Under the pieces are notes generated by a model. It made no database searches and had not been told where the DNA came from. It worked only from the letters and a program-made list of their open reading frames with translations. 64,000 bases of DNA. Source: Candidatus Micrarchaeia archaeon (GTDB lineage Archaea; Micrarchaeota; Micrarchaeia; CABMEP01). A program made the position numbers and the translations under genes. This document shows, in pieces, positions 590 through 47,402 of the stretch. The stretch covers positions 100,954 through 164,953 of the forward strand of contig JAVZXS010000001.1 in NCBI GenBank assembly GCA_038886535.1, read 5' to 3'. Position 1 is the first letter of the stretch; every line of letters begins with the position of its first letter.

Positions 590-1738
590 TTATCTAACGC
601 TTACTAATTCCATATACTCTGCAGTCATTCCCATTAATTCAAATTTTACATTCAAGTTTCCTGTATTGTTTTCAGGAATGCTGTTTAGATCTATGTAATA
701 TTGCATTCTTCTTAAGTTTTCAGGTATGTAGATAGGAGTTCCATCAGATCTTTCACCGATCTTTTCAGTAATCAGAAGGCAAGCCTTCTGGACTTTGAAA
801 ACAGAGCCGTGTTTGTTTATGAATTCTTCTACTTCGTTTTTGTTTGCATTGTTTGAAAATAGAATCAGATAGGAGTCTGAAAATGTGAGAGACAAATTAT
901 AGTCTGAGGCGATGCTTTCTATTTTTTGCCTGTCAAATGAATCTGTAATAATTCCCTTCGTATAAACTGTTGCATTTACGCCATTTTCATTCAGCTTTGA
1001 GTTGAATTCATTGATTTCAGTCTGGTTCAGATCCCTGTTGAATGTTATCGCATCATTTTTAGTATAATTTATATCACTGCTGTTTATGCCTAGTTCAATA
1101 ATCTCATCCATATTCAGGTTTCTATCCTCCCATCTTATCTTTCCTACTATAGCATATAGATCATAGCATGCAAAACTTGCACTTACTATTCCATCTGCAG
1201 TTCTTGTAATCGGTTCTGCAGATATGGATTCAATTCCTTTATCGCTTATATATGCAACAAGGTCAACATCTATTTCCTCTCCTACTCTGCTAAACGGATC
1301 TAGATAAAGCCTGATGTTCCCAGGTGCCTGTTTTGTTTCACTTCCATTTTGCATATAGAAGGAGACAAGCCCATTAATAGTGCAGGAAGATTGAGCTAAG
1401 ACATTTACATCTTCATTTATGTATGCGTTTCTTATCTTTTCTATATTTGATTTAGAAGAATATACTAAAATCCCTTTGTTTCCTATTATGTTTATATAAT
1501 CAATATACCCTGCATCCTTTAATTCTCTGGCTATCTTCTGCGTGTTTTCATTCCAAGGCTGAATAATAATTTCATTTCCATACCCTGCTATCTTACATGT
1601 AGCGGTTCCTTTGCCCTGGCTTATGTTTGAAACAGTTTCATGACTGATAGGAGTTCTTGTGAAGTTATAAAACATAGACATTATAAACATAAGAGCTATG
1701 AATGCAACTATGTATCTTACCATTTCTTTTCTTTCCAT
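590..1738 (-). CDS. Hypothetical protein with N-terminal membrane anchor
   Basis: 382-aa ORF; hydrophobic N-terminal helix followed by an Asn/Ile-rich soluble region. Confidence 0.7.
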   Translation of the reverse strand: MERKEMVRYIVAFIALMFIMSMFYNFTRTPISHETVSNISQGKGTATCKIAGYGNEIIIQPWNENTQKIARELKDAGYIDYINIIGNKGILVYSSKSNIEKIRNAYINEDVNVLAQSSCTINGLVSFYMQNGSETKQAPGNIRLYLDPFSRVGEEIDVDLVAYISDKGIESISAEPITRTADGIVSASFACYDLYAIVGKIRWEDRNLNMDEIIELGINSSDINYTKNDAITFNRDLNQTEINEFNSKLNENGVNATVYTKGIITDSFDRQKIESIASDYNLSLTFSDSYLILFSNNANKNEVEEFINKHGSVFKVQKACLLITEKIGERSDGTPIYIPENLRRMQYYIDLNSIPENNTGNLNVKFELMGMTAEYMELVSVR

Positions 1739-1854: not shown

Positions 1855-2568
1855 ATGGCAATACAAATAGGAGATTTCATAAAGTTGAGTTATACAGGAA
1901 TGCTAGAGGATGGATCAGTATTTGATACTACTGATGAAAAACTTGCGAAGGAAAAAGGAATTTACAATGAAAGAGTAGTATACGCGCCAGTTCTTTTGAT
2001 AGTTGGAAGACAACAGGTCATAAGAGGATTGGATGAGGCTTTAGTAGGGATGGAAAAGGGTGAAGAGAAAGAAGTAACCATTCCTCCTGAGAAGGCATTC
2101 GGTCAGATAAACAATGATCTTATAAACGTAATACCATTTTCACACTTTGAGAAGCAGAGAATCAACCCAGTTCCAGGAATGATTGTAAATGTAAATGGAA
2201 GAGACGGAATGGTCAGATCAGTGGGTGCAGGAAGAGTAATAGTTGACTTCAATCATCCTTTAGCAGGAAAGACATTGAAATATAAATTAAAGGTAGAAGA
2301 CATCTTAGACACACCAGAAAAAAGAGTAAATGCATTATTTGAAGATTCTGGACTTGCTGGTTCTGTCAAGCTTGATAAAGATACTGTGATTGTGGAAACA
2401 AAAGCAGATCCTTCTGAGAATTATATATTCAGAAAACAAACATTCCTTTCCTGGATAAGAGAGATAAATGAGGTAAACAAAATAAAATTCAATGAAGAGT
2501 ATGAGCTTATATCAAGGAAGCCAGAGGAAGGGCAGAAGACTGAAAAAACAAAATCTAAGACAGAGTAG
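1855..2568 (+). CDS. slyD: FKBP-type peptidyl-prolyl cis-trans isomerase (SlyD/long archaeal FKBP)
   Basis: GDFIKLSYTG..DGSVFDTT, GRQQVIRGLDEAL, PPEKAFG, VDFNHPLAGKTL; ATG at 1855 preferred over TTG at 1837. Confidence 0.92.
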   Translation: MAIQIGDFIKLSYTGMLEDGSVFDTTDEKLAKEKGIYNERVVYAPVLLIVGRQQVIRGLDEALVGMEKGEEKEVTIPPEKAFGQINNDLINVIPFSHFEKQRINPVPGMIVNVNGRDGMVRSVGAGRVIVDFNHPLAGKTLKYKLKVEDILDTPEKRVNALFEDSGLAGSVKLDKDTVIVETKADPSENYIFRKQTFLSWIREINEVNKIKFNEEYELISRKPEEGQKTEKTKSKTE

Positions 2569-3795: not shown

Positions 3796-4713
3796 TTATT
3801 TTTTCCAAATGTCCATACTAAGATACCTCTCTCCCCTATCACATAGGATTGTAACTATATTCTTTCCTTTCATATCTTTTCTTTTTTGAAGCTCAATACA
3901 TGCTGCTAAGTTTGCACCTGATGAGATACCACATAAAAGTCCTTCATTTCTTGCAAGCTCCGTTGTACTTTTTATTGCATCCTTGCTTCTCACAGTTATT
4001 ATTTCATCGATAAGATCATAATCAAATATTTTAGGTACAAATCCTTCACCTATTCCCTGAATATCGTGATGTCCTATCTTTCCTCCGCTTAAAGCTGCGC
4101 ATTCTTGTGGTTCAACCGCTATTATCTTTACATCTCTATACTTTTTCTTCAATACAGATGCGACTCCTCTTATAGTTCCACCAGTTCCAACACCCATAAC
4201 AAAAACATCTACTTTAAGCTTTTTCCTTTTCATTTCATTTATGATTTCATTTCCTGTTTTATAATGTGCTTTAAAATTATCTGGATTTTCAAATTGCGAT
4301 GGAAACCACGCCTTTCCTTTATATTTAATCTTCATTTCTTCAAGTTTTTTAACTGGTCCAAACATCTCTTCTTTTGCAGGAGTAAGAATAACTCTTCCTC
4401 CAAACGCCTCTATCATTTGTCTCCTTTCTTTTGTTACATTTTCAGGCATTATTGCAATGAATTCATATCCAAGTGCAGCAGAAACCATTGCAAAAGATAT
4501 TCCTGTATTTCCAGACGTGGCTTCTATTATTTTCATTCCTTTTTTTAACTCTCCTCTTTCTTCCGCCTTGTGAATCATCTCATGTGCAATCCTGTCTTTT
4601 AGACTTCCACTTGGATTGAGATATTCAAGTTTTGCATAAATGTTTGAACTATTGCTAAATCTTTCAAGTTTCACTATGGGCGTATTTCCTATATTATGAA
4701 ATATATCAACCAT
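3796..4713 (-). CDS. cysK: Cysteine synthase (O-acetylserine thiol-lyase, PLP fold II)
   Basis: IGNTPIV, KLEYLNPSGSLKDR (PLP Lys), EATSGNTGI, GVGTGGT, GISSGAN, ILCDRGERYLS. Confidence 0.9.
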   Translation of the reverse strand: MVDIFHNIGNTPIVKLERFSNSSNIYAKLEYLNPSGSLKDRIAHEMIHKAEERGELKKGMKIIEATSGNTGISFAMVSAALGYEFIAIMPENVTKERRQMIEAFGGRVILTPAKEEMFGPVKKLEEMKIKYKGKAWFPSQFENPDNFKAHYKTGNEIINEMKRKKLKVDVFVMGVGTGGTIRGVASVLKKKYRDVKIIAVEPQECAALSGGKIGHHDIQGIGEGFVPKIFDYDLIDEIITVRSKDAIKSTTELARNEGLLCGISSGANLAACIELQKRKDMKGKNIVTILCDRGERYLSMDIWKK

Positions 4714-5621: not shown

Positions 5622-5676
5622 AAGTTAATTTAAATAAATCCTATTAATAATAAAATAGTGTGCTGATTTAATAAAT

Positions 5677-7430: not shown

Positions 7431-8714
7431 ATGGCGTATGAAGGATATGTAGATTTGAAATATTCCCCATCCAAAGACGATTTAATATGCAGGTTTTATG
7501 TAGAGCCAAGATACGGAGTTTCGTTTGAGAGAGCAGCTAGTACAGTTGCGGCAGAATCAAGTATAGGAACATGGACAGATGTTCAGACTTCAAAGCCATA
7601 CGTTAAAAAATTAGCAGCTTATGTTTTTCATTTAGATCCAAATTCAGGATATATTGATATAGCATATCCATTAGATGCATTTGAACCAAATAACATTCCT
7701 CAGATGCTTAGTAGCATTGCAGGAAACATATTTGGAATGAAGGAAGCAAACAATCTAAGACTTTATGATATAAAAATTCCAAAGAAAATGATGCAATGGT
7801 ATGATGGACCAATGTTTGGTATACCTGGTGTTAGAAAATTACTCAAGGTTAAAACAAGACCTCTTCTTGGAACAATAATCAAGCCGAAAATGGGTTTAAA
7901 TGTCAGGGATCATGCAAAGGTTGCTTATGAGGCATGGGTAGGCGGATGTGATATAGTCAAGGATGACGAAAATTTAGCAAGTCAGAAATTCAATAATTTT
8001 GAAAAAAGGGTGAAAGAAACATTAAAGTTAAGAGACAAAGCAGAGAAAGAAACAGGCGAAAAGAAGATATATATGCCAAACATAACTGCTTCTGGAAAAG
8101 AAATGGAAAGAAGAGCAAAATTTGTAAAGGATCATGGTGGAGAATATGCGATGGTTGATATAATTACTGTTGGGTGGAGCGCTTTGCAAGATTTGAGGGA
8201 TTCAAATAACAAACTTAATTTAGTAATTCATGAACATAGAGCGGGCCATGCTGCAATCACAAGAAATCCAAAGCACGGAATATCTATGCTTACAATAGCG
8301 AAACTTACAAGGATGCTTGGGTTTGATCAATTGCATGCAGGGACAATAGTTGGAAAGATGGAAGGGGGATTGGAAGAGGTTCAAGATGTTGTAAGTGCGT
8401 TAAAAGAAAAGGTAACTCCTCCAAGGGAAAAAACATTCACATTAGGGCAGGATTGGTATGGTGTTAAACCTTGCTTCCCAGTTGCATCTGGAGGTCTTCA
8501 TCCATTAATGTTTCCTGTAATTACAAAGTACTTAGGAAAAGACTTAATCCTACAAGCTGGAGGAGGAATACATGGACACCCTCAAGGAACAAGAAGAGGA
8601 GCAACTGTTGCGAGAGCTGTATTAGAGGCAGTGGATCAAGGAATAGCGCTTGAGGATTCAAAGGATCCATTAATAAAGGAAGCAATCGAGATCTGGGGCA
8701 AACATAAGTTCTAA
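7431..8714 (+). CDS. rbcL: Ribulose-1,5-bisphosphate carboxylase, form III
   Basis: AAESSIGTWT, AGNIFG, GTIIKPKMG, DIVKDDE, HEHRAGH, LHAGT..GKM, ASGGLHP, QAGGGIHGHP; ATG at 7431 after GGTGG. Confidence 0.95.
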   Translation: MAYEGYVDLKYSPSKDDLICRFYVEPRYGVSFERAASTVAAESSIGTWTDVQTSKPYVKKLAAYVFHLDPNSGYIDIAYPLDAFEPNNIPQMLSSIAGNIFGMKEANNLRLYDIKIPKKMMQWYDGPMFGIPGVRKLLKVKTRPLLGTIIKPKMGLNVRDHAKVAYEAWVGGCDIVKDDENLASQKFNNFEKRVKETLKLRDKAEKETGEKKIYMPNITASGKEMERRAKFVKDHGGEYAMVDIITVGWSALQDLRDSNNKLNLVIHEHRAGHAAITRNPKHGISMLTIAKLTRMLGFDQLHAGTIVGKMEGGLEEVQDVVSALKEKVTPPREKTFTLGQDWYGVKPCFPVASGGLHPLMFPVITKYLGKDLILQAGGGIHGHPQGTRRGATVARAVLEAVDQGIALEDSKDPLIKEAIEIWGKHKF

Positions 8715-36202: not shown

Positions 36203-36940
36203 TTGAACATGATTTATTCAAGATTAAAGATATATTTGAGAAAAGAGAATCCAATTTCAAATTCAATCATCTTTAATGATAGATACTTAATTTATTCTTT
36301 CATTCTTAATGCTATAAGAATGAAAAATCCTGATCTTAGTGATAAAATACATTCAAATAAATTACCTCGGGCATTTGTTTTTTCTAATATAATTCCCTAT
36401 AAATCATATCATATTTTGTATTTTACAACTCCTTATAAAGAAGTTTTTAATGCATTCTATTCTGGTTTAAACAGAAGTTCAAGATTAAATGATAGAAATA
36501 AGATGTTTAATTTTAATATAGTAAATACTATTTTAGAAAATTTTGATATAAGTTCATATAAACATTTTAACTTTTTATCTCCTTTTCTAATTCGAACAAA
36601 AGAGAAAGTTTTAGATGAGATTGATCTAAATTTTTTTGAAAAAAGTATCTCTGAAGGAATAAAAAGAGTTAGTACTAAATTAAATATTGATGTAGAAGAT
36701 ACAAATGTAAAAATAAATGGTACTAAAGATGACTTTAGGAAGAAGCTGTATGTTTTTAAGAACTCAAAAAATGAAGATGTATATATAAGAGCATTTTCAG
36801 CAAAATCTCCTTCTGTTTCGATTTCATTTAATGACGATAAGGCTAAAGCAATCGCGCTATTTTATGGAATTGGAGATAGAACTAAACTTGGATTTGGTAT
36901 GTTAGGGTTTAAAGGTGGATTAGGTGAAGGGTTACAGTAA
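36203..36940 (+). CDS. cas6: CRISPR-associated endoribonuclease Cas6
   Basis: FVFSN, FLSP, C-terminal G-loop YGIGDRTKLGFGM; first gene of cas operon. Confidence 0.88.
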   Translation: MNMIYSRLKIYLRKENPISNSIIFNDRYLIYSFILNAIRMKNPDLSDKIHSNKLPRAFVFSNIIPYKSYHILYFTTPYKEVFNAFYSGLNRSSRLNDRNKMFNFNIVNTILENFDISSYKHFNFLSPFLIRTKEKVLDEIDLNFFEKSISEGIKRVSTKLNIDVEDTNVKINGTKDDFRKKLYVFKNSKNEDVYIRAFSAKSPSVSISFNDDKAKAIALFYGIGDRTKLGFGMLGFKGGLGEGLQ

Positions 36941-38477
36941 CTTTCAAATTGCAATGGGTAGGGCTGTTGCAAAAATTATAATTCAAAGTTCAGATTTGAG
37001 TGAGCTAGATAATGAATTATATCGTTTTTCCGACGCAATAATTAAATCAAATGACGACATTCCAACAATCGCAAATCAATTATGGGATAAATTATTTAAG
37101 GATCCAAGTGAATTTCCACTAATGAAAAAGTTATTTCATATTATTTTAAGGACAAATGCAGCTATAGAGAACATTCCATCTAACCAAAATGTGAGAGACT
37201 ATATTTCTAAAATTTTAGCCATTTCTGATGAAGAAATGAGAAAAATAGAGAAGCAATTAAAAGAAGCTAAGAATAAAAAGAAACCCTCATTAAAATCGCT
37301 GATTGATTTTCTTCATGGTGAAAGAAAAGCAAAGATTTTATTCTCTTATTTTGTTTGTTTATTAAAAGGGAATCAAAATGGTAAAAAAAAGAATCAAAAT
37401 GGTGATACAAAATGCTACAATTGTGGAATGCAAGGAAGAAACTATTCTTTATCAAATCTAACTCTTTCTAATAAAAGCGATTACATTTTTGAATTTCAAA
37501 GATATACCATATGTTTTAGATGTTTAATATATACAATTCTATCAAATCTTTATCCAGTTCCAAATAAAAATATTCATCCATTTACAAATAAAAATTCTAC
37601 CAAAAAATCTAAAAAAATTTATTATAGTTTAATATCGGATGAAGAAGACATAACTCCATCTTTCATATTTTATGAAAATCAATTTGATAGATTTTTAAAA
37701 TATGTTTATCTTAATGATAACTTTTCTAGAATTTATATTATGTTTTTCCAAGAAGGTTCTCGATCTGGGAATAATATACCTATTTCTATTTCTCAGTTTA
37801 ATATAGTTCCAAAATTAATTAAGATGCTGGAAGAAAAAGAAAAAGGAAAAAAAGAAGAAAGAAGTTCGGTTCTAGATTTCAAAAAAATATTTTTCAACGA
37901 ATTAATGGATTTACCAATTTATTTCGTTTCATTTGGTGACTTCATTCAAACTTCATATCTGAATAAAGGATTAATAATATCTTTTATCAATATGTATAGA
38001 ACTAATTTTTCTAAAAAACATAAAGAATCCTTTTCTTCTCTTTATAAATTTACAAAATTTGTAAAAGAATACTTAGAGGTGAATGAAATGGAAAATAATT
38101 TTATGGTAGAAAAAAAATCTTCAAGTGAAAACGATAGAAACTCAAAATTAGAAGCATTGAAAAAGGGAATGTCTTTTGGTTATAGAATAAAAGAATCTGA
38201 TATTTATAAAGAAGATGAGGAGCGTTCAGAAAAGTATATCGTTTCTTCTAGTGCAGTTATGGAGCTTAGTGGAAAAGAATTTATAAGAACAATTATAGAG
38301 ATAACTAGGAATTATGGATTAGAGATTGTACAAAATATGAATGAATATATTGAAAAAATAGCAGATGATGAAGAACTAAGACTTTATTTTATTTTAGGGA
38401 TGCTAAGTCGCATAGGTAGAAATAAAAAGGAGTCTGTTCAAAGTGAAGGTGAAAAAGTAGAAGGTAATATTAATTGA
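36924..38477 (+). CDS. cas8: Type I-B large subunit Cas8 (Zn-binding CxxC..CxxC)
   Basis: Position between cas6 and cas7; CYNC and CFRC pairs; helical C-terminal domain. Confidence 0.75.
   Translation: MKGYSNFQIAMGRAVAKIIIQSSDLSELDNELYRFSDAIIKSNDDIPTIANQLWDKLFKDPSEFPLMKKLFHIILRTNAAIENIPSNQNVRDYISKILAISDEEMRKIEKQLKEAKNKKKPSLKSLIDFLHGERKAKILFSYFVCLLKGNQNGKKKNQNGDTKCYNCGMQGRNYSLSNLTLSNKSDYIFEFQRYTICFRCLIYTILSNLYPVPNKNIHPFTNKNSTKKSKKIYYSLISDEEDITPSFIFYENQFDRFLKYVYLNDNFSRIYIMFFQEGSRSGNNIPISISQFNIVPKLIKMLEEKEKGKKEERSSVLDFKKIFFNELMDLPIYFVSFGDFIQTSYLNKGLIISFINMYRTNFSKKHKESFSSLYKFTKFVKEYLEVNEMENNFMVEKKSSSENDRNSKLEALKKGMSFGYRIKESDIYKEDEERSEKYIVSSSAVMELSGKEFIRTIIEITRNYGLEIVQNMNEYIEKIADDEELRLYFILGMLSRIGRNKKESVQSEGEKVEGNIN
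38088..38477 (+). CDS. cas11: Putative Cas11 small subunit from an internal in-frame start within cas8 (129 aa)
   Basis: GAGGTGA SD at 38076-38082, 5 nt before in-frame ATG (Met389 of Cas8). Confidence 0.65.
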   Translation: MENNFMVEKKSSSENDRNSKLEALKKGMSFGYRIKESDIYKEDEERSEKYIVSSSAVMELSGKEFIRTIIEITRNYGLEIVQNMNEYIEKIADDEELRLYFILGMLSRIGRNKKESVQSEGEKVEGNIN

Positions 38478-38486
38478 GGTGGTATT

Positions 38487-39467
38487 ATGGATATAAATAA
38501 TAAAGATAAAAATGAAGAAGCTAAGAAATTAAAAGAGTTTGTTTTGTTTAGCGAAGAAATGAAGAAAATAAGTGAGAAATATGGTTTTAGTCATGGAAAA
38601 AGAGTAACTTTAACAGCTATTTATTACTCTTTCCCATCAAATCAAAATGCAAGTGGTTCAACAGGAACTAATGTAATCTCTCAAAAGATTATACCTTGGG
38701 GAGAAGAAGCCGAACCTCGTATTTATATAAGTCCTTACGCTATTAAAAGAAGGATAAGAGATTATTGGATTAAAAAGAAACTGCCTTGCGTAATGGCAGA
38801 GAATACGGTATACGCAAAATCAAATTCAGATGATGCTAAAAAAGATATCAAAAAAGCTATTAAAAAATATATAGATGTTGACTTATTCGGTTTCATGTAT
38901 GAGGAAAAGATAAATAGACCTGGTCCCATAACGACGTGGGGAGCAGTATCATTAGAACCGGTTCATCAGTTTATAGACTTTAATAGTTGTATTTTGAATG
39001 TTAAGGATGAAAGTAGCGGAGGAGGCTCTTTAATAAACAGATCGATTTCAAAAGAATTCTATTTTACATCATTTTATATAAACCCTGATCTTATATTATA
39101 TTCAAACGATGAATATGTGGGAGATAACAAGGAAGAAAGATTAAATCGTTTAGAAAACTTCCTTGAAGCAGTTGACTATGCCCTTCAAAAAGATTCAGGT
39201 GGTGCAAGAGATAGACCTACATGCATATTTAAATTATTAGAAATAAATGATTTTGGATACGGCGATTCAGATAAGAAGATTTTCAAGTGTATCAGTGTAG
39301 CGAATGATAAATTAAAGTTTGCAGAAATCCCAACATTCAAATCAAATAAAACTTATTACTATGCAGATAAACTATTCTTTGATGAAACTGAAGAGAAATT
39401 AAGTAAATTAGGACAAAAATGGAAAATAAAAGAGATAGCAGAGGAAATAGTTTACAGCAAAAATTAA
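38487..39467 (+). CDS. cas7: Cas7 backbone subunit (DevR/Cas7i-like)
   Basis: PSNQNASG, YISPYAIKRRIRD, IDVDLFGFM, RPGP, AVSLEP, SGGARDRP. Confidence 0.88.
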   Translation: MDINNKDKNEEAKKLKEFVLFSEEMKKISEKYGFSHGKRVTLTAIYYSFPSNQNASGSTGTNVISQKIIPWGEEAEPRIYISPYAIKRRIRDYWIKKKLPCVMAENTVYAKSNSDDAKKDIKKAIKKYIDVDLFGFMYEEKINRPGPITTWGAVSLEPVHQFIDFNSCILNVKDESSGGGSLINRSISKEFYFTSFYINPDLILYSNDEYVGDNKEERLNRLENFLEAVDYALQKDSGGARDRPTCIFKLLEINDFGYGDSDKKIFKCISVANDKLKFAEIPTFKSNKTYYYADKLFFDETEEKLSKLGQKWKIKEIAEEIVYSKN

Positions 39468-39478
39468 AAGGTGTTATA

Positions 39479-40246
39479 ATGCAAAATTTAGATCTTTCTA
39501 AATTTTGGTTTTATAGATTAAGTGTTGAAGGTTGGCTCGCCCATTTTAGGCAGCCAACTACAGTTTCAAGTAGATTAACTTTTATTTTACCTCCAAAATC
39601 AACTGCCATCGGTATGTTACTTGCTAAAGTTGGTTTATACAAAAGAATTGATAAAAATATATTACTATTCAAAAATAAAAAATTAAGAGAATTATTTGAC
39701 AATACATTCATAGCAATTTCACTAAAAAGAGGAATTGTAAAATATATGGATTATTTAAATTATATATCAAAAAAAGATAAACGTAAACCAACTAATATAG
39801 AGTATATTGTAAATCCATCCTATGAGATTATATATTTTCTACCTAAAGATGATCTGATATTAGGAGAAAAAAATAAAGAAATAATCATAAATAAAGAAAT
39901 TTTTAAAGTTTATTTAGGCTACAATGAATGTCCAGCTACTATTAATTTATCTGAAGAAATAAATAGCAATCAAATTAATTTTAGTAATAGGCAGGATATT
40001 ACTACTGACTTCATTTTACCTCTTGATGTTGTTGATTCATCAAGTATCGATAGAAGTAAACTTAGCGAATTGTTAAGATCATCTATACTTATTAGTACCC
40101 CTCAAAATGTGAAAGAAGTTGAGGATACAATGAAAGAAAAAGAAGTTTTGGTTCCATTAAGAAAAATGGAATTTAGATTAAATAATAATATTCCTGTTTT
40201 CGAAATGAAGTTGAATGGAAATATTAATCAATTCTTGGTGATTTGA
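39479..40246 (+). CDS. cas5: Cas5
   Basis: GWLAHFRQP, LTFILPPKSTAIGML, YLGYNE. Confidence 0.88.
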   Translation: MQNLDLSKFWFYRLSVEGWLAHFRQPTTVSSRLTFILPPKSTAIGMLLAKVGLYKRIDKNILLFKNKKLRELFDNTFIAISLKRGIVKYMDYLNYISKKDKRKPTNIEYIVNPSYEIIYFLPKDDLILGEKNKEIIINKEIFKVYLGYNECPATINLSEEINSNQINFSNRQDITTDFILPLDVVDSSSIDRSKLSELLRSSILISTPQNVKEVEDTMKEKEVLVPLRKMEFRLNNNIPVFEMKLNGNINQFLVI

Positions 40247-42633
40247 TGCAGCATGATAAGTTATTAGCTAGACCTAATCAAGAGCTTATAAATCATTTGA
40301 TGGAAATAAAGAATAAAATTCCAAAAAATGTTTCAGAATTAGAAAAGATGGTTTTTATATTGCATGATATTGGCAAGGTTTCAGATAAATTTCAGAAGAA
40401 ATTAGAAAAGAATGAGAATGTTAGATTCAGACATACTTTAGCTTCTTTACCAATTATTGAGTATATTATAAATGAATATAAAACAGTAAATCCAGAATCA
40501 AATTACCAAGATACCGATATTTATCTGATTTTAGTTTATTACCATCATGGACAAATATCTTTTGATATGTTACAAAATGATTTGGTTCATTTTTCCATTC
40601 AAAAAAATGATGAAAATAACATCAATATAATAGAAAAGGATGAGCTAATGAGAGTTAAGCAAATACTTAAAGATCTTAATTATGGAGAATATTTCGATGA
40701 AGAAAAATTTATACATTACTATTTAAATTCAAATGGTTCAGATTATAATCGCCTTTATAATGAAAAATTAAAAGAGATTTTAAAACGAATATATAATAAA
40801 TTTAAAATAGTTTCACCTGAGGTCAAAAAGAAATTTGCTTTGCTTTATTCTATTTTCGTAGAATTAGATTGGTATTCTACTTCCGATAGCAATAATGAAA
40901 TTTTACCAGATTGGAATGGGATTGAATTTTCTTTCAAAAAGAAATTTAAAGAAAGAAAGGAAGGAAGAGTAGATAGGGATTTGGAAGTTGAAAATATTAG
41001 AAATAAAATTAAAGATCTATTAATTAAAAATATAGATGAAGGTAGAATTTTTATATGTGCACCGACCGGAATAGGTAAGACCGAATTGTCTTTAGAATGG
41101 GCATTGAATAATGCCAAAAAACTGAATGCAAGAAAAATAATATATGTATTACCTTACCGAAATTTAATAAACGACTTGTATAAACGTTTTACTTTTTATT
41201 TCGGAGACGAAAACGTTGATAAATGGGATTCAAATTGGATAACTGATAAAACAATTGATTATGCAAGTGAACTAAGTGATATTGAAAAATTTAATTTCTA
41301 TCTAAATGCGAGAAAGTATTTTATGGAGAAACCAATAATAATAACTACAGCAGATCAAATACTGATGTCGTTCTTAAATTTAGAGAGATATCCTATAAGA
41401 TATGGTATGTTAATGAATTCAGTAATCGTTTTTGATGAAATACAGGCTTATGGAGTGGACATGAGGAATTTAATGTATAAATTAATAAGTGAAATAGCAA
41501 ATATCAAAGATATAAATGGTGAATATACTTGTAAATTGGCAATAACTACTGCTACACCTCCTTTTGAAATTTCAATTTCTGAATTTAAAGATTATATAGA
41601 TATTGATGGTATTTCATTTAAACTTTTGTACGATAAATATTGGTGGTCTTTTCATAAAAAACGCGATGCAAATGTTTTAATAATTGAGATTGATAAAAAT
41701 TCTCAAATTGTAGATATAATAAAACAGAAAGTAAATGAATCAAAAAATGAGGAAAATTATAGAATTTGTATAATTGTCAATACAATAGCAGATGCTGTTG
41801 GTTTATATAGACTACTAGAAAAAAATAATGTTAAAGATGTTATTAAAGAAAATTATGAAATAGCATTAATACATAGTTCATTAATTAATGAGCATAAACA
41901 AAAGGAATTAGATAAAATAAATAAGAGTAAGAAGTTAATAGCCATTTCAACGCAAGTATTAGAAGCAGGCATTGATATTTCTTTTGACTGTATAATAAGA
42001 TTGATTTCACCAATTCCTTCTTTAGTTCAATCGGCAGGGAGAGTTAATAGAGATGGAAAAAGCCGTAATGCAGAATTTATAATATTGATACCAACTGAAG
42101 AAATTTTAAATAATGAAAAACGTAAAAAAAGCAATATAAATTTTTATGGTCCGTATGATATAGAAGAAATTAAAAAAGTAATCGAATTATTAAAAGAAAA
42201 TAAAGGAAATTTGATTAAAAAGAGTAAATTCAGTGAAGAATTTATAAAAAAAGAAATCGATACATTAAAATTTGAATATTCTGAAAGTAAAGAATATATA
42301 GATTTTCTTAATAATCTTGTTGCTTATAACATTTGGTCTGTATCATCGTTAAGTTCAATCTTGCCTCAAGGCTTTAGAGACTCTTTAGGTAAAGTAGAAG
42401 TTTTTGTAGAAGATGAATCAAATAAAAAGAAAGACATGGAGGATAAGCTTAAAAATTATATAAAATTATCAAAAGAGAATGATTATTCAGAATATATAAG
42501 GAAGTATCTTCAATTATTAAGAGAATATCAAAGTAGATTTATTCTAACTTATTTAGATTCTAAGATAGATACTATCTCTATAAAGAAATATAAAGAGAAT
42601 TTTTATCCTCAACATGAAAATTCTGATAAATGA
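40246..42633 (+). CDS. cas3: Cas3 HD nuclease-helicase
   Basis: LHDIGK, RHTLAS, HHG, APTGIGKT, FDEIQ, TAT, QVLEAGIDIS, QSAGRVNR; TGATG coupling to cas5. Confidence 0.95.
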   Translation: MQHDKLLARPNQELINHLMEIKNKIPKNVSELEKMVFILHDIGKVSDKFQKKLEKNENVRFRHTLASLPIIEYIINEYKTVNPESNYQDTDIYLILVYYHHGQISFDMLQNDLVHFSIQKNDENNINIIEKDELMRVKQILKDLNYGEYFDEEKFIHYYLNSNGSDYNRLYNEKLKEILKRIYNKFKIVSPEVKKKFALLYSIFVELDWYSTSDSNNEILPDWNGIEFSFKKKFKERKEGRVDRDLEVENIRNKIKDLLIKNIDEGRIFICAPTGIGKTELSLEWALNNAKKLNARKIIYVLPYRNLINDLYKRFTFYFGDENVDKWDSNWITDKTIDYASELSDIEKFNFYLNARKYFMEKPIIITTADQILMSFLNLERYPIRYGMLMNSVIVFDEIQAYGVDMRNLMYKLISEIANIKDINGEYTCKLAITTATPPFEISISEFKDYIDIDGISFKLLYDKYWWSFHKKRDANVLIIEIDKNSQIVDIIKQKVNESKNEENYRICIIVNTIADAVGLYRLLEKNNVKDVIKENYEIALIHSSLINEHKQKELDKINKSKKLIAISTQVLEAGIDISFDCIIRLISPIPSLVQSAGRVNRDGKSRNAEFIILIPTEEILNNEKRKKSNINFYGPYDIEEIKKVIELLKENKGNLIKKSKFSEEFIKKEIDTLKFEYSESKEYIDFLNNLVAYNIWSVSSLSSILPQGFRDSLGKVEVFVEDESNKKKDMEDKLKNYIKLSKENDYSEYIRKYLQLLREYQSRFILTYLDSKIDTISIKKYKENFYPQHENSDK

Positions 42634-43162
42634 TAGTATGATGAAACATGAAATTAAATACGATGATGTAAGTGGAACTGAATTTAATTATTTTTTCGTT
42701 TGTAAAACACAACTATGGTATCTTTCTCACTCATTAATAAAGTCAGATGAAGATGAAAATGTAAAGATTGGGAGATTAGTTCATGAAATCAAGTATAAAT
42801 CAGAGAGGAAAGAAAGGCCTCTATTTAGGTCTAAATTTGATGTAGTCAAGTTAAATAACAGATATGTAATATACGAATATAAAAAAAGCGCTATTAAAGA
42901 TTCACACATAAAGCAATTAAAATTTTATCTCTATTCCTTAAAGAAGCAAACAGATGCAGAAGTTCAAGGTATCTTGATCTCACCAGGAAAACGTATTTTT
43001 GTTTCTCTTTCAAGTGAAGACTTTAATGAGATAGATTCTACTATAAATGAAATCCACCAAATTAAAAAGTCTAAGTTTCCACCAAAACCAGTCAAAATAC
43101 CTACTTGCAAAAAGTGCGGTTATAGATCATTCTGTTGGGGTGACACTTATGAGTTTGGATAA
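42614..43162 (+). CDS. cas4: Cas4
   Basis: CKTQLWY, D..EYKKS, QLKFY, CKKCGYRSFC. Confidence 0.95.
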   Translation: MKILINDSMMKHEIKYDDVSGTEFNYFFVCKTQLWYLSHSLIKSDEDENVKIGRLVHEIKYKSERKERPLFRSKFDVVKLNNRYVIYEYKKSAIKDSHIKQLKFYLYSLKKQTDAEVQGILISPGKRIFVSLSSEDFNEIDSTINEIHQIKKSKFPPKPVKIPTCKKCGYRSFCWGDTYEFG

Positions 43163-44105
43163 TTATTACATTGTTGATGATGGGAAAATTTTGATGAAAA
43201 ATACAACTGTTTATTTCATTAATAAAGAAAGAAAAGTTGATATACCAATTGAAAATATATACTCTCTTTATTTTATTGGTTCTGGTTCTATTTCTACAAA
43301 AGTTCTAAAAGAATTTCAAAAAAGGAAAATAATAGTTAATTTCTTTGGAAAAAGAGGAGATTATATCGGTTCTTTCTACCCCAAAGAACATTATATCTCT
43401 GGTGATCTAGTAGTAAGACAGGTTAAAAGATATCTTGATGACAAAAGTAGATTAAAGTTTGCTTCTAAATTTGTGGAAGGCGCTATTAATAATATTGATT
43501 GGATTTGTAGGAGATTTAATTTAGGTGAAATAAATAAACCAGATATATCGTCTTCAGATACTATAGAATCATTAATGCAAAAAGAAGGATTAGTAAGAAA
43601 GAAGTTTTACTCATTAATTGATGAAAGACTAGATGATTCATTTAAAATAACCAGAAGAGAAATAAACCCACCTTCAAATAGAGGAAATGCAATCATAAGT
43701 TTTCTTAATTCTATGGTCTATTCAACAGTTTTATCTGAACTATATCATACACATCTAAATCCAGCTATATCTTTTTTACATGAACCTTTTGAAAGGCGTT
43801 TTTCACTATCGTTAGATGTGAGTGAAATATTCAAACCTTTACTCTCAGAAAGACTTCTAATAAAGATGGTTAACTTGAAAATGTTAGATCCTATTTTAGA
43901 TTTCGAGTCGAATGATGGTGTATTTTTAAGTAAAATCGGTATTAAAAAAATAATTAAGGAATTCGATGATGAAATTAAGAAATCGGTTAAAGGTAAAAGT
44001 AATAGATTATTTTCAATACGTGAATTAATTAGACTAGAGCTATATAAGATAGAGAAAGATCTTTTAGACATTTCTGAATATAAACCTTTGAAGGCCTGGT
44101 GGTAA
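43149..44105 (+). CDS. cas1: Cas1 (I-B type)
   Basis: NTTVYF, DIPIENI, GSFYP, EG..RKKFY, NAIISFLN, FLHEP, LSLDVSEIFKP. Confidence 0.96.
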   Translation: MSLDNYYIVDDGKILMKNTTVYFINKERKVDIPIENIYSLYFIGSGSISTKVLKEFQKRKIIVNFFGKRGDYIGSFYPKEHYISGDLVVRQVKRYLDDKSRLKFASKFVEGAINNIDWICRRFNLGEINKPDISSSDTIESLMQKEGLVRKKFYSLIDERLDDSFKITRREINPPSNRGNAIISFLNSMVYSTVLSELYHTHLNPAISFLHEPFERRFSLSLDVSEIFKPLLSERLLIKMVNLKMLDPILDFESNDGVFLSKIGIKKIIKEFDDEIKKSVKGKSNRLFSIRELIRLELYKIEKDLLDISEYKPLKAWW

Positions 44106-44106
44106 A

Positions 44107-44370
44107 ATGTATGTAATTGTTGTTTATGATATAACAGAAGTAAAAAAGCAACTTAAAATAAGAAATTTTTTGAGGAGATTTCTAAATCACATTCAATTTT
44201 CAGTTTTTCATGGAAATTTAAATCCTTCACAATTGAAAGAAATTGAATTATTTCTAAAGGATTTCGATTATGAGGGAAATGATTCAGTAGTGGTTTTCAT
44301 TGTTCCAATATACTCAAATATTAGAAATTTAGTTTTTGGCAGAAATATAGAAAAATCTAATATTATCTAA
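44107..44370 (+). CDS. cas2: Cas2
   Basis: MYVIVVYDI, LNHIQFSVFHG, DSVVVF. Confidence 0.96.
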   Translation: MYVIVVYDITEVKKQLKIRNFLRRFLNHIQFSVFHGNLNPSQLKEIELFLKDFDYEGNDSVVVFIVPIYSNIRNLVFGRNIEKSNII

Positions 44371-44476
44371 ATCTAGTATAGAAGGTGGTTTCAAAGCTTT
44401 TTAAATACTTTAAAAAAAGTTAATTTGTATTAAAATTATAATAATTAATTAAAATTCTTATTCGATGTAGTTTAAG
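44371..44476 (+). promoter_or_regulatory. CRISPR leader
   Basis: AT-rich non-coding 106 bp between cas2 and the first repeat; degenerate repeat is at the opposite end. Confidence 0.75.
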
Positions 44477-46529
44477 GTCTAAAATCATACAATGATGGAT
44501 GTGAACAACTGAAATTATTACTTGTCCTGCTGAGATGTCAGATGTCTAAAATCATACAATGATGGATGTGAACAGAATTTTAAACAAAGTCAATGTTAAG
44601 AACAAACCTTGTCTAAAATCATACAATGATGGATGTGAACATGCTCAGATCCAAACACAAAAAGCAGCCATACTTCAGTCTAAAATCATACAATGATGGA
44701 TGTGAACTTTTATTCAATCTGAAGGGGGAACAACCTCTTTAAGAGTCTAAAATCATACAATGATGGATGTGAACATGAATTTAGCTAAATTAAAAAACAT
44801 TTATTCTCAAGTCTAAAATCATACAATGATGGATGTGAACATAACGAAATAACAGCAAGCGAAATAATAACACTCTTGTCTAAAATCATACAATGATGGA
44901 TGTGAACAAATTTTATTAACGTAAGCTGTTTTAATATCATCCGGTCTAAAATCATACAATGATGGATGTGAACTTAGGGTCTGCATTCACGCCGTCAATA
45001 AACTGCTTCGTGTCTAAAATCATACAATGATGGATGTGAACAAGTATCTTGTATATTCATATTTTCACCTTTTACATTTGTCTAAAATCATACAATGATG
45101 GATGTGAACTCTGATATATCTGATTTAAATCCAATTCCTATTAATACGTCTAAAATCATACAATGATGGATGTGAACAGCAACCTATACAACATATTGTA
45201 TCCATATACATTAGTCTAAAATCATACAATGATGGATGTGAACGAGAAAAGGTTTATCTTAGAAGATAGTTGAGGTGATAGAATGGGTCTAAAATCATAC
45301 AATGATGGATGTGAACAAACTATTACAGAACTTCTTGGATATGAAAATGTGTCTCGTCTAAAATCATACAATGATGGATGTGAACCAGAAGATGGATTAT
45401 TATACCTTTTACGAAGCAGTTTAGTCTAAAATCATACAATGATGGATGTGAACACGCAAAAAATGTAAGCAACACTACAAAAATCAAAACGTCTAAAATC
45501 ATACAATGATGGATGTGAACAAAATTAAGAAAGGCAAGAAGGAGGTAGATTAAGATGTGTCTAAAATCATACAATGATGGATGTGAACTTTAATTCATTT
45601 TTTTCTATATATAATATATCAGTTGGTCTAAAATCATACAATGATGGATGTGAACTCTTCCTTTTGCGTGGAAGTACCTAAGAGCGTGAAGGTCTAAAAT
45701 CATACAATGATGGATGTGAACTATTGACACCATCTTCTGCAGGAATACCACTCTTTCGTCTAAAATCATACAATGATGGATGTGAACAAAAGTTTGGACA
45801 GTATATGGTTTGGAATTTTGGATTCGTCTAAAATCATACAATGATGGATGTGAACTTTGATTACATTAATTGCGAGGTTGGTCAATATGAAGTCTAAAAT
45901 CATACAATGATGGATGTGAACTATTTATACAAGGATTTGAATTAGTTAAGTTAGAAGGTCTAAAATCATACAATGATGGATGTGAACTAATGTTTTGTCC
46001 ATACATCCTGTTTCGTGTCTAAAATGTCTAAAATCATACAATGATGGATGTGAACACCCAATCAACCAATCTATAATCATTCTGACCTGCTAAACGGCTA
46101 AAATCATACAATGATGGATGTGAACAAATGGCAGAAGAATTTTACATCGGCATAGGGGTAAAGTCTAAAATCATACAATGATGGATGTGAACATACGAAG
46201 AGAGAAAAATACAGAAAACTAAGCTCTTCCGTCTAAAATCATACAATGATGGATGTGAACACACTAAATCAACATAAACAAGAGAAGCCAAATATTTGTC
46301 TAAAATCATACAATGATGGATGTGAACGATCTTATCAAGGACCATGCAATAGCTTTGTTTCATGGTCTAAAATCATACAATGATGGATGTGAACATAAAG
46401 AAGTCTATTAAGAAAAAACCTATTAAGAAAGTCTAAAATCATACAATGATGGATGTGAACTCACAGGTAGCAAGATAGTGGAATTTGCTACTGAGATTGG
46501 TCTAAAATCATACAATGATGGATGTGAAA
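44477..46529 (+). CRISPR. CRISPR array: 31 repeats of GTCTAAAATCATACAATGATGGATGTGAAC (30 bp), 30 spacers of 36-43 bp
   Basis: Counted by hand; repeat 25 (46096) starts GGCT, terminal repeat 31 ends GAAA. Confidence 0.99.
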
Positions 46530-46846: not shown

Positions 46847-47059
46847 TTATCTTTCTTTTATAATGCAAATTCTTCTACTTCCAAGTAGGGGAAACAATAA
46901 ATTTGTACTTCTCTCACACATAATATCTTCAGTTAATGTACATTTATAGTAAAATTCATTTATAACTTTCCCATTTCTTTTAAGTCCTAAAGTATTTATT
47001 ATTAATTTATTACTAAAGTATGGGCATTTTGTAGGTTGTTTTTTATTTATGTTGGACAT
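46847..47059 (-). CDS. Small Cys-containing protein (70 aa) downstream of the array
   Basis: Strong SD AGGAGGTGA before ATG 47059; four Cys; AT-rich like the cas island. Confidence 0.6.
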   Translation of the reverse strand: MSNINKKQPTKCPYFSNKLIINTLGLKRNGKVINEFYYKCTLTEDIMCERSTNLLFPLLGSRRICIIKER

Positions 47060-47402
47060 AGCTTTCACCTCCTTATTAATGAATAAGTAAGAATCAATTA
47101 ATATTTACAATATCTATACATCATATTAAAACAAGCCTTGTATTGGTTTATAATAATTACTTGGTTTACGTTCTTTATAATAATTTATATTATAATAATA
47201 TAGTTTAATTTATATTTAAATTTTAATTTATATTCAAATTTACTTTATTGGGCTTATAGAAATCTTATGTTCTTTAATAAATGGAAAATAATATAATTCA
47301 TCCTGCCTCTTGTATATTCTGGCATATAACTTTGCCTATCGGCATTATCACCAATAATTTACACTAATAATAATTTAGAGGATTTCTTCAGAGTGATATT
47401 GT

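Follow-up and report, generated by a model that had tools for sequence, protein, structure and literature searches.

The 64,000-nucleotide stretch of DNA analyzed here (the window) comes from a Candidatus Micrarchaeia archaeon and carries an array of clustered regularly interspaced short palindromic repeats (CRISPR) that follows directly on a cas operon and a short AT-rich leader (Table 1). The array is part of a complete type I-B CRISPR-Cas system of this DPANN archaeon. The host genome measures 1.14 Mb in 40 contigs, is 88% complete and has a GC content of 0.33. NCBI gives the name 'Candidatus Micrarchaeia archaeon' to proteins that share at least 90% identity with the AlaRS of the window. 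Little is known of the viruses and plasmids of DPANN archaea, and Micrarchaeia cannot be cultivated by themselves. In this study we follow three spacers of the array (8, 13 and 14), which appear to encode pieces of a D5/P4-type superfamily 3 (SF3) helicase, to a small mobile element whose family is very probably a recurrent target of this system.

A sequence-only reading of the window had proposed that spacers 8 and 14 overlap, that their merged sequence and spacer 13 encode parts of a D5/P4-type primase-helicase, and that their source is an undescribed element. The positions that it gave for the three spacers, which are those of Table 1, are exact, and both the overlap and the translations were reproduced. 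The final 13 nucleotides (nt) of spacer 8 (TAAACTGCTTCGT) equal the reverse complement of the final 13 nt of spacer 14 (ACGAAGCAGTTTA). When merged, the two spacers give a 63-mer that is open in frame +1 and reads RRWIIIPFTKQFIDGVNADP, and spacer 13 reads TITELLGYENVS in frame +2. The 13-mer is the longest word common to any pair of spacers. A shared word of at least 13 nt anywhere occurred in 6 of 200 shuffled spacer sets, with an end-to-end dovetail being rarer than that.

Nucleotide searches for the source covered a broad range of collections. There was no protospacer in the archaeon's own genome, neither the junction 30-mer nor a degenerate peptide pattern matched IMG/VR, and blastn found no protospacer among GenBank phages or PLSDB plasmids, with a comparison of all spacers to the phages likewise nil. 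A wobble-tolerant pattern of 12 codons with free third positions had no match in JGI metagenomes or GTDB genomes, and 400 genomes of the phylum gave chance-level nucleotide matches only. The 63-mer had a single match there, 29 nt at 90% identity in a GatA gene (encoding PKQFFDGVDA), which was rejected as a source, its E-value being at chance level over the 400 genomes. A tblastn search with the 20-residue peptide returned nothing, and the 20-mers matched no Pfam, NCBIfam or PHROG model in hmmscan.

Where searches at the nucleotide level fail, a diverged target can still be reached through the peptides that spacers encode. We joined the three peptides by runs of X residues that kept their natural distances and used the resulting string in a word-indexed search of 5.8 billion proteins. 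The single protein returned was P0001 (469 residues, E 1.5e-15), encoded at positions 98-1507 of L030, an 8,788-bp Logan contig of run SRR27730033. The spacer 13 peptide matches P0001 at ITELLGRENVS, within GEGSNGKSVLLKVITELLGRENVS (10/12 residues), the merged peptide matches residues 312-331, RRWLLIPFTKQFIDGVNADP, in the context YYRRWLLIPFTKQFIDGVNADP (18/20), and spacer 26, which reads TKREKYRKLSSS, matches VKRELYRRLSSS (9/12). Together the three spacer peptides are identical to P0001 at 37 of 44 residues, with order and spacing right. The proposal that spacers 8, 13 and 14 belong to a single D5-like open reading frame (ORF) is therefore borne out in a relative of the target, where all three lie in frame in the P0001 gene and where the protospacers of spacers 8 and 14 have the identical 13-nt overlap, which is contiguous in L030.

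The opposing explanation for these observations is that the overlap and the helicase-like peptides are a chance resemblance of short AT-rich sequences. It draws on the 3% of shuffled spacer sets that contain a shared word of at least 13 nt, on the GatA match as an illustration that short motifs mislead, and on the lack of any Pfam, NCBIfam or PHROG match to the 20-residue peptides when these are used alone. We consider coincidence exceedingly improbable given that one real protein holds the three peptides in the order and at the distances expected, that the protospacers of spacers 8 and 14 are adjacent in its gene with the same overlap, and that the mismatches are synonymous and the flanking motif conserved, as described below.

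Every spacer of the array was then compared without gaps to both strands of L030 using shuffled controls, and a separate scan was performed at the protein level. Ten of the 30 spacers find a match on L030, with identities of 58-97% (Table 1), and each of them beats every shuffle at the DNA or the protein level. Spacers 3, 8, 13, 14, 15, 19, 20, 26 and 28 exceed all shuffles in the protein-level scan, including spacer 26 that is the weakest match at the DNA level. Spacer 10 (25/38 nt, in frame in a 765-residue ORF) was dropped, as its flank is ACA and its score lies inside the shuffle range. Eight of the mapped spacers lie wholly inside one ORF, and their 62 mismatches fall at codon position 3 in 41 cases, at position 1 in 15 and at position 2 in 6; the peptides of the in-ORF spacers have 9-12 of 11-12 residues identical to those of L030. 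This bias towards the third codon position indicates a homologous coding target under purifying selection. Identity is also uneven along L030, with 92-97% for the late genes against 58-84% around the helicase. L030, the nearest relative among public sequences, has thus diverged from the true source and is not that source itself, and the true target would be a closer variant of L030. Other contigs that encode relatives of the helicase (L031-L034, at 72% and about 50% identity) have at most one weak spacer match. Taken together, these data indicate that spacers 8, 13, 14 and 26 very probably come from the SF3 helicase gene of a small element near L030, and that this element family supplied no fewer than 10 of the 30 spacers.

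Table 1. Type I-B CRISPR-Cas locus of the window and protospacers of the mapped spacers on contig L030 (flank, 5' trinucleotide in spacer orientation).
Feature	Window position (strand)	L030 position (strand)	Remarks
cas6	36203-36940 (+)		NCBIfam I-B-type match below cut-off
cas8b large subunit, 517 aa	36924-38477 (+)		assigned by position only; no NCBIfam model matches
cas7	38487-39467 (+)		I-B-type match below cut-off
cas5	39419-40246 (+)		I-B-type match below cut-off
cas3 (fused HD and helicase)	40243-42633 (+)		core and HD exceed NCBIfam cut-offs
cas4	42614-43162 (+)		exceeds NCBIfam cut-off
cas1	43047-44105 (+)		TIGR03641 (type I-B Cas1b), 340 bits vs cut-off 304
cas2	44107-44370 (+)		exceeds NCBIfam cut-off
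Type I-B cas operon, whole	36203-44370 (+)		directly upstream of array
Leader, AT-rich	44371-44476 (+)		between cas2 and first repeat
CRISPR array	44477-46529 (+)		31 repeats, each 30 nt; 30 spacers, 36-43 nt long
Spacer 3	44641-44677 (+)	7935-7971 (+)	36/37 nt; in 765-aa orphan ORF; flank TGA
Spacer 8	44974-45011 (-)	1055-1092 (-)	32/38 nt, 12/12 aa; reverse complement encodes TKQFIDGVNADP; flank TTA
Spacer 12	45244-45286 (+)	1983-2025 (+)	31/43 nt (shuffle maximum 27); mostly intergenic, gene start; flank TTG
Spacer 13	45317-45355 (+)	741-779 (+)	30/39 nt, 10/12 aa; TITELLGYENVS, post-Walker-A; flank TCA
Spacer 14	45386-45423 (+)	1030-1067 (+)	29/38 nt, 10/12 aa; RRWIIIPFTKQF, putative arginine finger; flank TTA
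Spacer 15	45454-45490 (-)	2067-2103 (-)	27/37 nt, 9/12 aa; 84-aa membrane ORF; flank TCG
Spacer 19	45722-45757 (+)	4475-4510 (+)	33/36 nt, 11/11 aa; 188-aa ORF; flank TTA
Spacer 20	45788-45825 (+)	1903-1940 (+)	30/38 nt, 11/12 aa; 42-aa ORF; flank TTG
Spacer 26	46193-46230 (+)	1206-1243 (+)	22/38 nt, 9/12 aa; helicase gene; flank TGG
Spacer 28	46328-46364 (-)	5627-5663 (-)	35/37 nt; spans start of gene for 80-aa hydrophobic protein; flank TTG

The 5' flanks of all ten protospacers, read in spacer orientation, conform to T-N-R (TTA and TTG three times each, and TCA, TGA, TCG and TGG once each). With a chance of 0.136 for T-N-R at a random L030 site, ten of ten corresponds to p = 2e-9, and TTR in at least six of ten to p = 1e-6; the 3' flanks of the ten protospacers exhibit no pattern. 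The expectation that flanks would give the protospacer-adjacent motif (PAM) is thereby realized, with a PAM of T-N-R (mostly TTR) that is deduced from the diverged relative L030 and not from exact protospacers. A conserved 5' trinucleotide fits the adjacent type I-B cas operon because type I systems use a 5' trinucleotide PAM. Additionally, the assignment of the weak spacers 12, 15 and 26 is supported because the T-N-R flank also holds for them.

In a working model of this locus, Cas1, Cas2 and Cas4 would pick fragments of about 36-38 bp located 3' of a 5'-T-N-R (mostly TTR) on either strand and would insert them beside the leader. Cas6 would then produce CRISPR RNAs, Cascade (Cas8b/Cas7/Cas5) would read the PAM and protospacer, and Cas3 would degrade the element, with interference presumably working as in type I-B systems that have been studied. 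Spacers 8 and 14 would represent separate acquisitions with convergent PAMs and protospacers that overlap by 13 bp. The biology is ordinary, namely a type I-B system sampling the replication gene of an invader; what is new is the element family and its assignment to a host.

The sequence-only reading had further proposed repeated acquisition from both strands of one replication gene, which it considered consistent with primed adaptation. In that case, Cas3-dependent acquisition guided by an older, imperfect spacer would have produced a burst of spacers on both strands around the helicase gene. Type I-B systems do prime, for example in Haloarcula hispanica, and the present system has Cas3 and Cas4. 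Seven of the ten protospacers fall within positions 741-2103, a stretch of 1.36 kb that makes up 15% of L030 (simulated chance 0.006) and that contains those of the array-consecutive spacers 12-15, and both strands are used (seven plus, three minus). However, the clustering is inflated by a detection bias, since the conserved gene can be mapped at 58-84% identity while elsewhere only near-identical matches are detected. The dovetail says little for priming because any-pair overlap among ten random protospacers on 8.8 kb has a chance of 0.32, with or without PAM restriction, and spacers 8 and 14 are six array positions apart, so they did not arise in one event. There are also 20 unmapped spacers, and no priming spacer can be named. 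We therefore regard the case for priming as evenly poised.

The helicase reading was also examined with a profile. TIGR01613, which describes the P4 family, is found in 9 of 401 genomes of the phylum, and a profile built from eight P4-family proteins of this phylum was scored against 186 six-frame spacer peptides. The merged peptide ranked first and aligned at profile positions 129-143, which is the arginine segment, followed by spacer 14 alone and by spacer 26 in frame +2; the spacer 13 peptide ranked fourth and aligned at positions 34-44 in the segment after Walker A. These scores are weak in absolute terms, as expected for 12-20 residues, and the ranks and positions are those that the sequence-only reading predicted. 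Spacer 26 surfaced as a fourth helicase candidate that had not been predicted. Both motifs that had been recognized in the spacers, RR-x-x-IIPF and LLG-x-x-NVS, are conserved in the eight phylum proteins. Specifically, the segment after Walker A has the form h-h-G-x-[ED]-N-x-[ST], as in GKSTLIRAMNAFVGEENMTHIS or GKSVLISTLADFLGKENTCSIP, and the segment after motif C the form RRW-x-I-I-x-F-x-x-x-F, as in RRWVIISFPYKF or RRWTIITFPFRF. By comparison with SF3 helicases in general, the RRW segment is a putative arginine finger.

The domains of P0001 are consistent with this assignment. A D5_N domain (PF08706, E 6.5e-14, 52.9 bits vs cut-off 22.4) spans residues 69-173, the SF3 core (DUF5906, PF19263, E 3.1e-23) covers residues 202-313, and a winged helix covers residues 384-455. 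The Walker A motif GEGSNGKS is followed by the conserved segment, which together read GEGSNGKSVLLKVITELLGRENVS. P0001 also matches PHROG 864, annotated as 'DNA primase', at E 9e-99, with the alignment limited to positions 211-628 of 1064 in the model, which is its helicase half. There is no primase domain in P0001 (AEP/Prim-Pol PF09250 or zf-CHC2/Toprim), a statement that applies to this relative and not to the true target. P0001 is helicase-only because its ORF is limited to 492 residues, leaving no room for a primase domain. By its sequence P0001 is a D5/P4-family SF3 helicase; the label 'D5/P4-type primase-helicase' was right in its helicase half, which Pfam and PHROG support, and its primase half found no support in P0001. 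At E <= 1e-10 P0001 has 549 homologues, mostly from archaeal metagenomes and many of them labelled 'phage/plasmid primase, P4 family', including some of 740-800 residues that contain PF09250 or PF01807. Its closest relatives, at 72%, 50% and 49% identity, reside on short unannotated contigs, and its best annotated matches are ORFs of Nitrosopumilaceae spindle-shaped viruses (28-34%) and of Sulfolobus pRN-type plasmids (24-32%).

The array itself consists of 31 copies of the repeat GTCTAAAATCATACAATGATGGATGTGAAC, for which Rfam has no CRISPR-DR family. Spacer 1 is the newest because the leader lies next to cas2 and the repeat most distant from it is degenerate (GTGAAA). Spacer 23 (45988-46025) has a 3' end, GTCTAAAAT, equal to the first 9 nt of the repeat, which is either a fortuitous repeat-like ending or a partial duplication of the repeat at the junction. 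A Cas8b identical to that of the window is present on the NCBI assembly GCA_038885315.1.

The link between the element and its host does not depend on one array. A comparison of L030 with the 400 genomes of the phylum led to G093, a second species of the genus, through a match of 39/40 nt that lies in a CRISPR array (C1 about 47.1-48.4 kb; L039, L051). This array has a repeat identical to that of the window, contains 18 spacers and ends in a degenerate repeat. Four of these 18 spacers map to L030 (39/40, 30/37, 30/36 and 26/36), and the arrays of G093 and the window have no spacer in common. Because two species target L030, with 10/30 and 4/18 of their spacers, the genus meets this element family repeatedly. 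The GC content of the element (0.36) is likewise close to that of the host (0.33).

Homologues of element sequences also occur in chromosomes of these archaea. A 73-residue ORF of the window (46847-47068, minus strand), which lies 318 nt past the last repeat, is 50% identical over 52 residues to a Cys-rich protein of 114 residues that is encoded at 2754-3098 of L030. Its likely start is the ATG at 47059 behind GGAGGTGA, and it apparently lacks the C-terminal part. This ORF could have been left behind by an element, or host and element may have exchanged the gene. A 71% nucleotide-identical copy is present in G304, of the same genus (C39:1483-1624). In addition, a palindromic motif of about 50 nt, TTTACATTTTTG-N12-CAAAAATGTTGAAAATTTG, occurs at 2775-2830 of L030 upstream of the 114-residue protein gene and is 84% identical to two direct copies that lie outside the window in the host genome (G000:C3:52453 and C3:53885). 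The host copies flank a gene for a 414-residue ATPase (C3:52542-53786) that by eye appears to be of the AAA_14/DUF4143 kind, and similar pairs of the motif about 1.3 kb apart exist in other genomes of the class. The motif may be an operator or promoter, or the boundary of a cassette.

With two targeting species, similar GC content, homologues of the 114-residue protein gene and the common 50-nt motif, we infer that the element probably replicates in Micrarchaeia and not in a neighbour, which these observations suggest without proving. The competing view is that the element belongs to the symbiont's own host or to a neighbour, with its DNA reaching the DPANN cell by cell-cell contact. Such a route is conceivable as DPANN archaea live attached to other archaea and as cross-lineage spacer matches are among the findings of one report on dense hydrothermal mats (PMC10159854), and there is no integrated copy or relative of the element in the 400 phylum genomes. 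We consider this unlikely in light of the heavy targeting by two species of one genus, the near agreement in GC content, the homologue of the 114-residue protein gene that adjoins the array as well as another in a genome of the same genus, and the 84% identity of the 50-nt motif to chromosomal loci of the class.

Several observations weigh against the proposed link between this array and an element near L030 that it targets. No exact protospacer was found, and the helicase gene of L030 is only 58-84% identical to the spacers. The nucleotide matches of spacers 12, 15 and 26 are weak, and of the four G093 protospacers two have L030 flanks other than T-N-R (CCG and CTA, with the other two being T-N-R). 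L030 also has no terminal overlap. The origin of these spacers in an element of the L030 family nevertheless remains the reading that we adopt, and we turn to the element on that basis.

All genes of L030 are on one strand and its GC content is 0.36. The helicase gene comes first, then that of a ribbon-helix-helix protein together with a number of tiny ORFs, of which some encode membrane proteins, and then the gene of the 114-residue Cys-rich protein. These are followed by a nuclease-like protein of 101 residues (UPF0102/Mrr/Hjc-like), proteins of 188 and 263 residues, and a very hydrophobic protein of 80 residues; the last two genes encode the 765-residue protein and a multi-pass membrane protein of 156 residues. 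The claim that the element is undescribed holds in so far as its relative L030 is absent from IMG/VR, GenBank phages, PLSDB and GTDB representatives, and IMG/VR contains no closer relatives of P0001 or of the 765-residue protein. The latter returned only itself from the set of 5.8 billion proteins. Among 1.84 billion cluster representatives it has two relatives, which are alike only over the first ~190 residues and which are located on contigs L036 (Logan SRR12958396) and L037 (JGI 3300020153). When its N-terminal domain was the query, JGI metagenomes gave L037 alone, and neither GTDB genomes nor the 400 phylum genomes gave a match. The source of L037 is sediment at 60 C in Great Boiling Spring, Nevada (PMC6624737).

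L037 keeps the full order of the late block, with proteins of 188 residues, 263 residues with a transmembrane segment, ~80 hydrophobic residues with two helices, the large protein and a multi-transmembrane protein of ~150 residues, and additionally encodes a very basic protein of 68 residues and a DUF2341 surface domain. L036 has the last three genes of this block together with a fragment of the homologue of the 263-residue protein, and L031, whose helicase is 72% identical, has four small early genes in common with L030. The large protein varies from 765 to 1107 residues across the relatives, with a conserved N-terminal 190 residues and a variable remainder. Its N-terminal domain has a predicted fold (predicted local distance difference test, pLDDT, 82) with no BFVD fold match at E <= 0.001. 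The 80-residue protein (L030 5646-5888) has conserved counterparts in L036 and L037, in each case just upstream of the large protein, and is predicted to form two long helices in a hairpin (pLDDT 69); it has no match in Pfam or PHROG, nor by Foldseek in PDB or BFVD (E <= 0.001). As a separate observation, L036 (3,459 bp) has a 30-nt terminal direct overlap through which it assembles as a 3.43-kb circle that encodes only a 79-residue hydrophobic protein, an 832-residue large protein and a fused membrane protein. L036 may be a mini-element or satellite of the L030 family, or else an assembly artefact.

Whether these contigs represent a virus or a plasmid depends on how these late genes are read. 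A plasmid or other non-viral replicon, either pRN-like or a P4-helicase plasmid with membrane-protein cargo, would be in keeping with the recognizable genes of L030, which are limited to the replication helicase, a ribbon-helix-helix regulator and a small nuclease, and P4-family helicases of this type are present on Sulfolobus pRN plasmids at 24-32% identity. Pfam and PHROG detect no capsid, portal, terminase or spindle-virus AAA+ ATPase in L030, with no ATPase besides the SF3 helicase in its 8.8 kb, a contig that may be incomplete. The fold searches with the 80-residue protein and the N-terminal domain of the large protein also gave no viral match. A plasmid origin is thus a possibility of some substance that we nonetheless doubt. 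Against a plasmid, a five-gene block is syntenic in L030 and L037 and the L036 circle retains its structural-like end, the large protein has the conserved N-terminus and variable remainder of a fibre or adhesin, and L037 has the very basic 68-residue protein and the DUF2341 surface domain. Moreover, the best annotated viral matches of the helicase are spindle-shaped viruses of Nitrosopumilaceae, and the one-strand gene layout with a hydrophobic helical protein followed by a very large protein resembles small archaeal virion modules. On balance, the L030 family is somewhat more likely to be a small virus or a virus satellite than a plain plasmid. More specifically, we tentatively suggest, at slightly less than even odds, that L030, L031, L036 and L037 may constitute a new ~9-kb virus family or a virus-plus-satellite system of hot-spring Micrarchaeia.

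If this suggestion is true, the virion module, composed of an 80-residue helical hairpin, a fibre-like protein of 765-1107 residues and membrane proteins, would have no detectable relatives in sequence or fold, and replication of the element would depend on a helicase-only D5-like protein. It would also be among very few virus families with a CRISPR link to this DPANN phylum, and its PAM and two of its host species would already be known. What emerges is a concrete host-element pair, comprising two Micrarchaeia species, a type I-B system whose PAM is deduced as TTR/TNR, and an element family for which only four public contigs are known, including one from Great Boiling Spring, and whose structural-like genes are orphans among 1.8 billion protein clusters.

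Comparison with known systems places these components in context. Like the P4/D5 SF3 helicases (TIGR01613; PF08706 plus PF19263), P0001 has the domain order D5_N, SF3 core and winged helix, and it contains the Walker A motif GEGSNGKS, LLG-x-EN-x-S, motif C and RRW-x-I-I-x-F. Examples of this family are the helicase half of pRN1 ORF904 from Sulfolobus islandicus (NC_001771.1) and ORFs of Nitrosopumilaceae spindle-shaped viruses (BK067784.1 and others). P0001 differs from annotated virus and plasmid helicases in being only 24-34% identical to them, and unlike pRN1 ORF904 or P4 alpha it is without an AEP/Prim-Pol or Toprim primase domain.

Adaptation and interference by type I-B systems have been studied in Haloarcula hispanica, Haloferax volcanii and clostridia. 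The system of the window shares with these the order cas6-cas8b-cas7-cas5-cas3-cas4-cas1-cas2, a Cas1b signature, 30-nt repeats, spacers of 36-43 nt and a 3-nt 5' PAM. It differs from them in its DPANN host with a genome of about 1.1-1.3 Mb, in a putative PAM of T-N-R (mostly TTR) that is deduced from a diverged relative, and in a large subunit that falls outside curated families.

The element is best compared with the spindle-shaped viruses of Nanohaloarchaeota and their small circular satellites (SRCEs, 2.7-9 kb) (Zhou et al. 2025, bioRxiv, 10.1101/2025.02.15.638363). A signature AAA+ ATPase defines the morphogenetic module of the spindle viruses (10.1101/2025.02.15.638363) and is absent from L030. 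Major capsid proteins of spindle-shaped viruses (Fuselloviridae, Halspiviridae, Thaspiviridae and relatives) are hydrophobic and alpha-helical with ~70-90 residues, and the L030 protein of 80 residues has two predicted helices (pLDDT 69) without detectable similarity to known capsid proteins in sequence or fold. Like the elements of Nanohaloarchaeota, the L030 family is small, associated with DPANN archaea and found through CRISPR spacers, and those elements also combine a small hydrophobic alpha-helical protein with plasmid-type primase-helicases; the relative L036 assembles as a 3.4-kb circle with structural-like genes only. Unlike the Nanohaloarchaeota systems, the host phylum of the L030 family is Micrarchaeota and its habitat is geothermal springs rather than brines.

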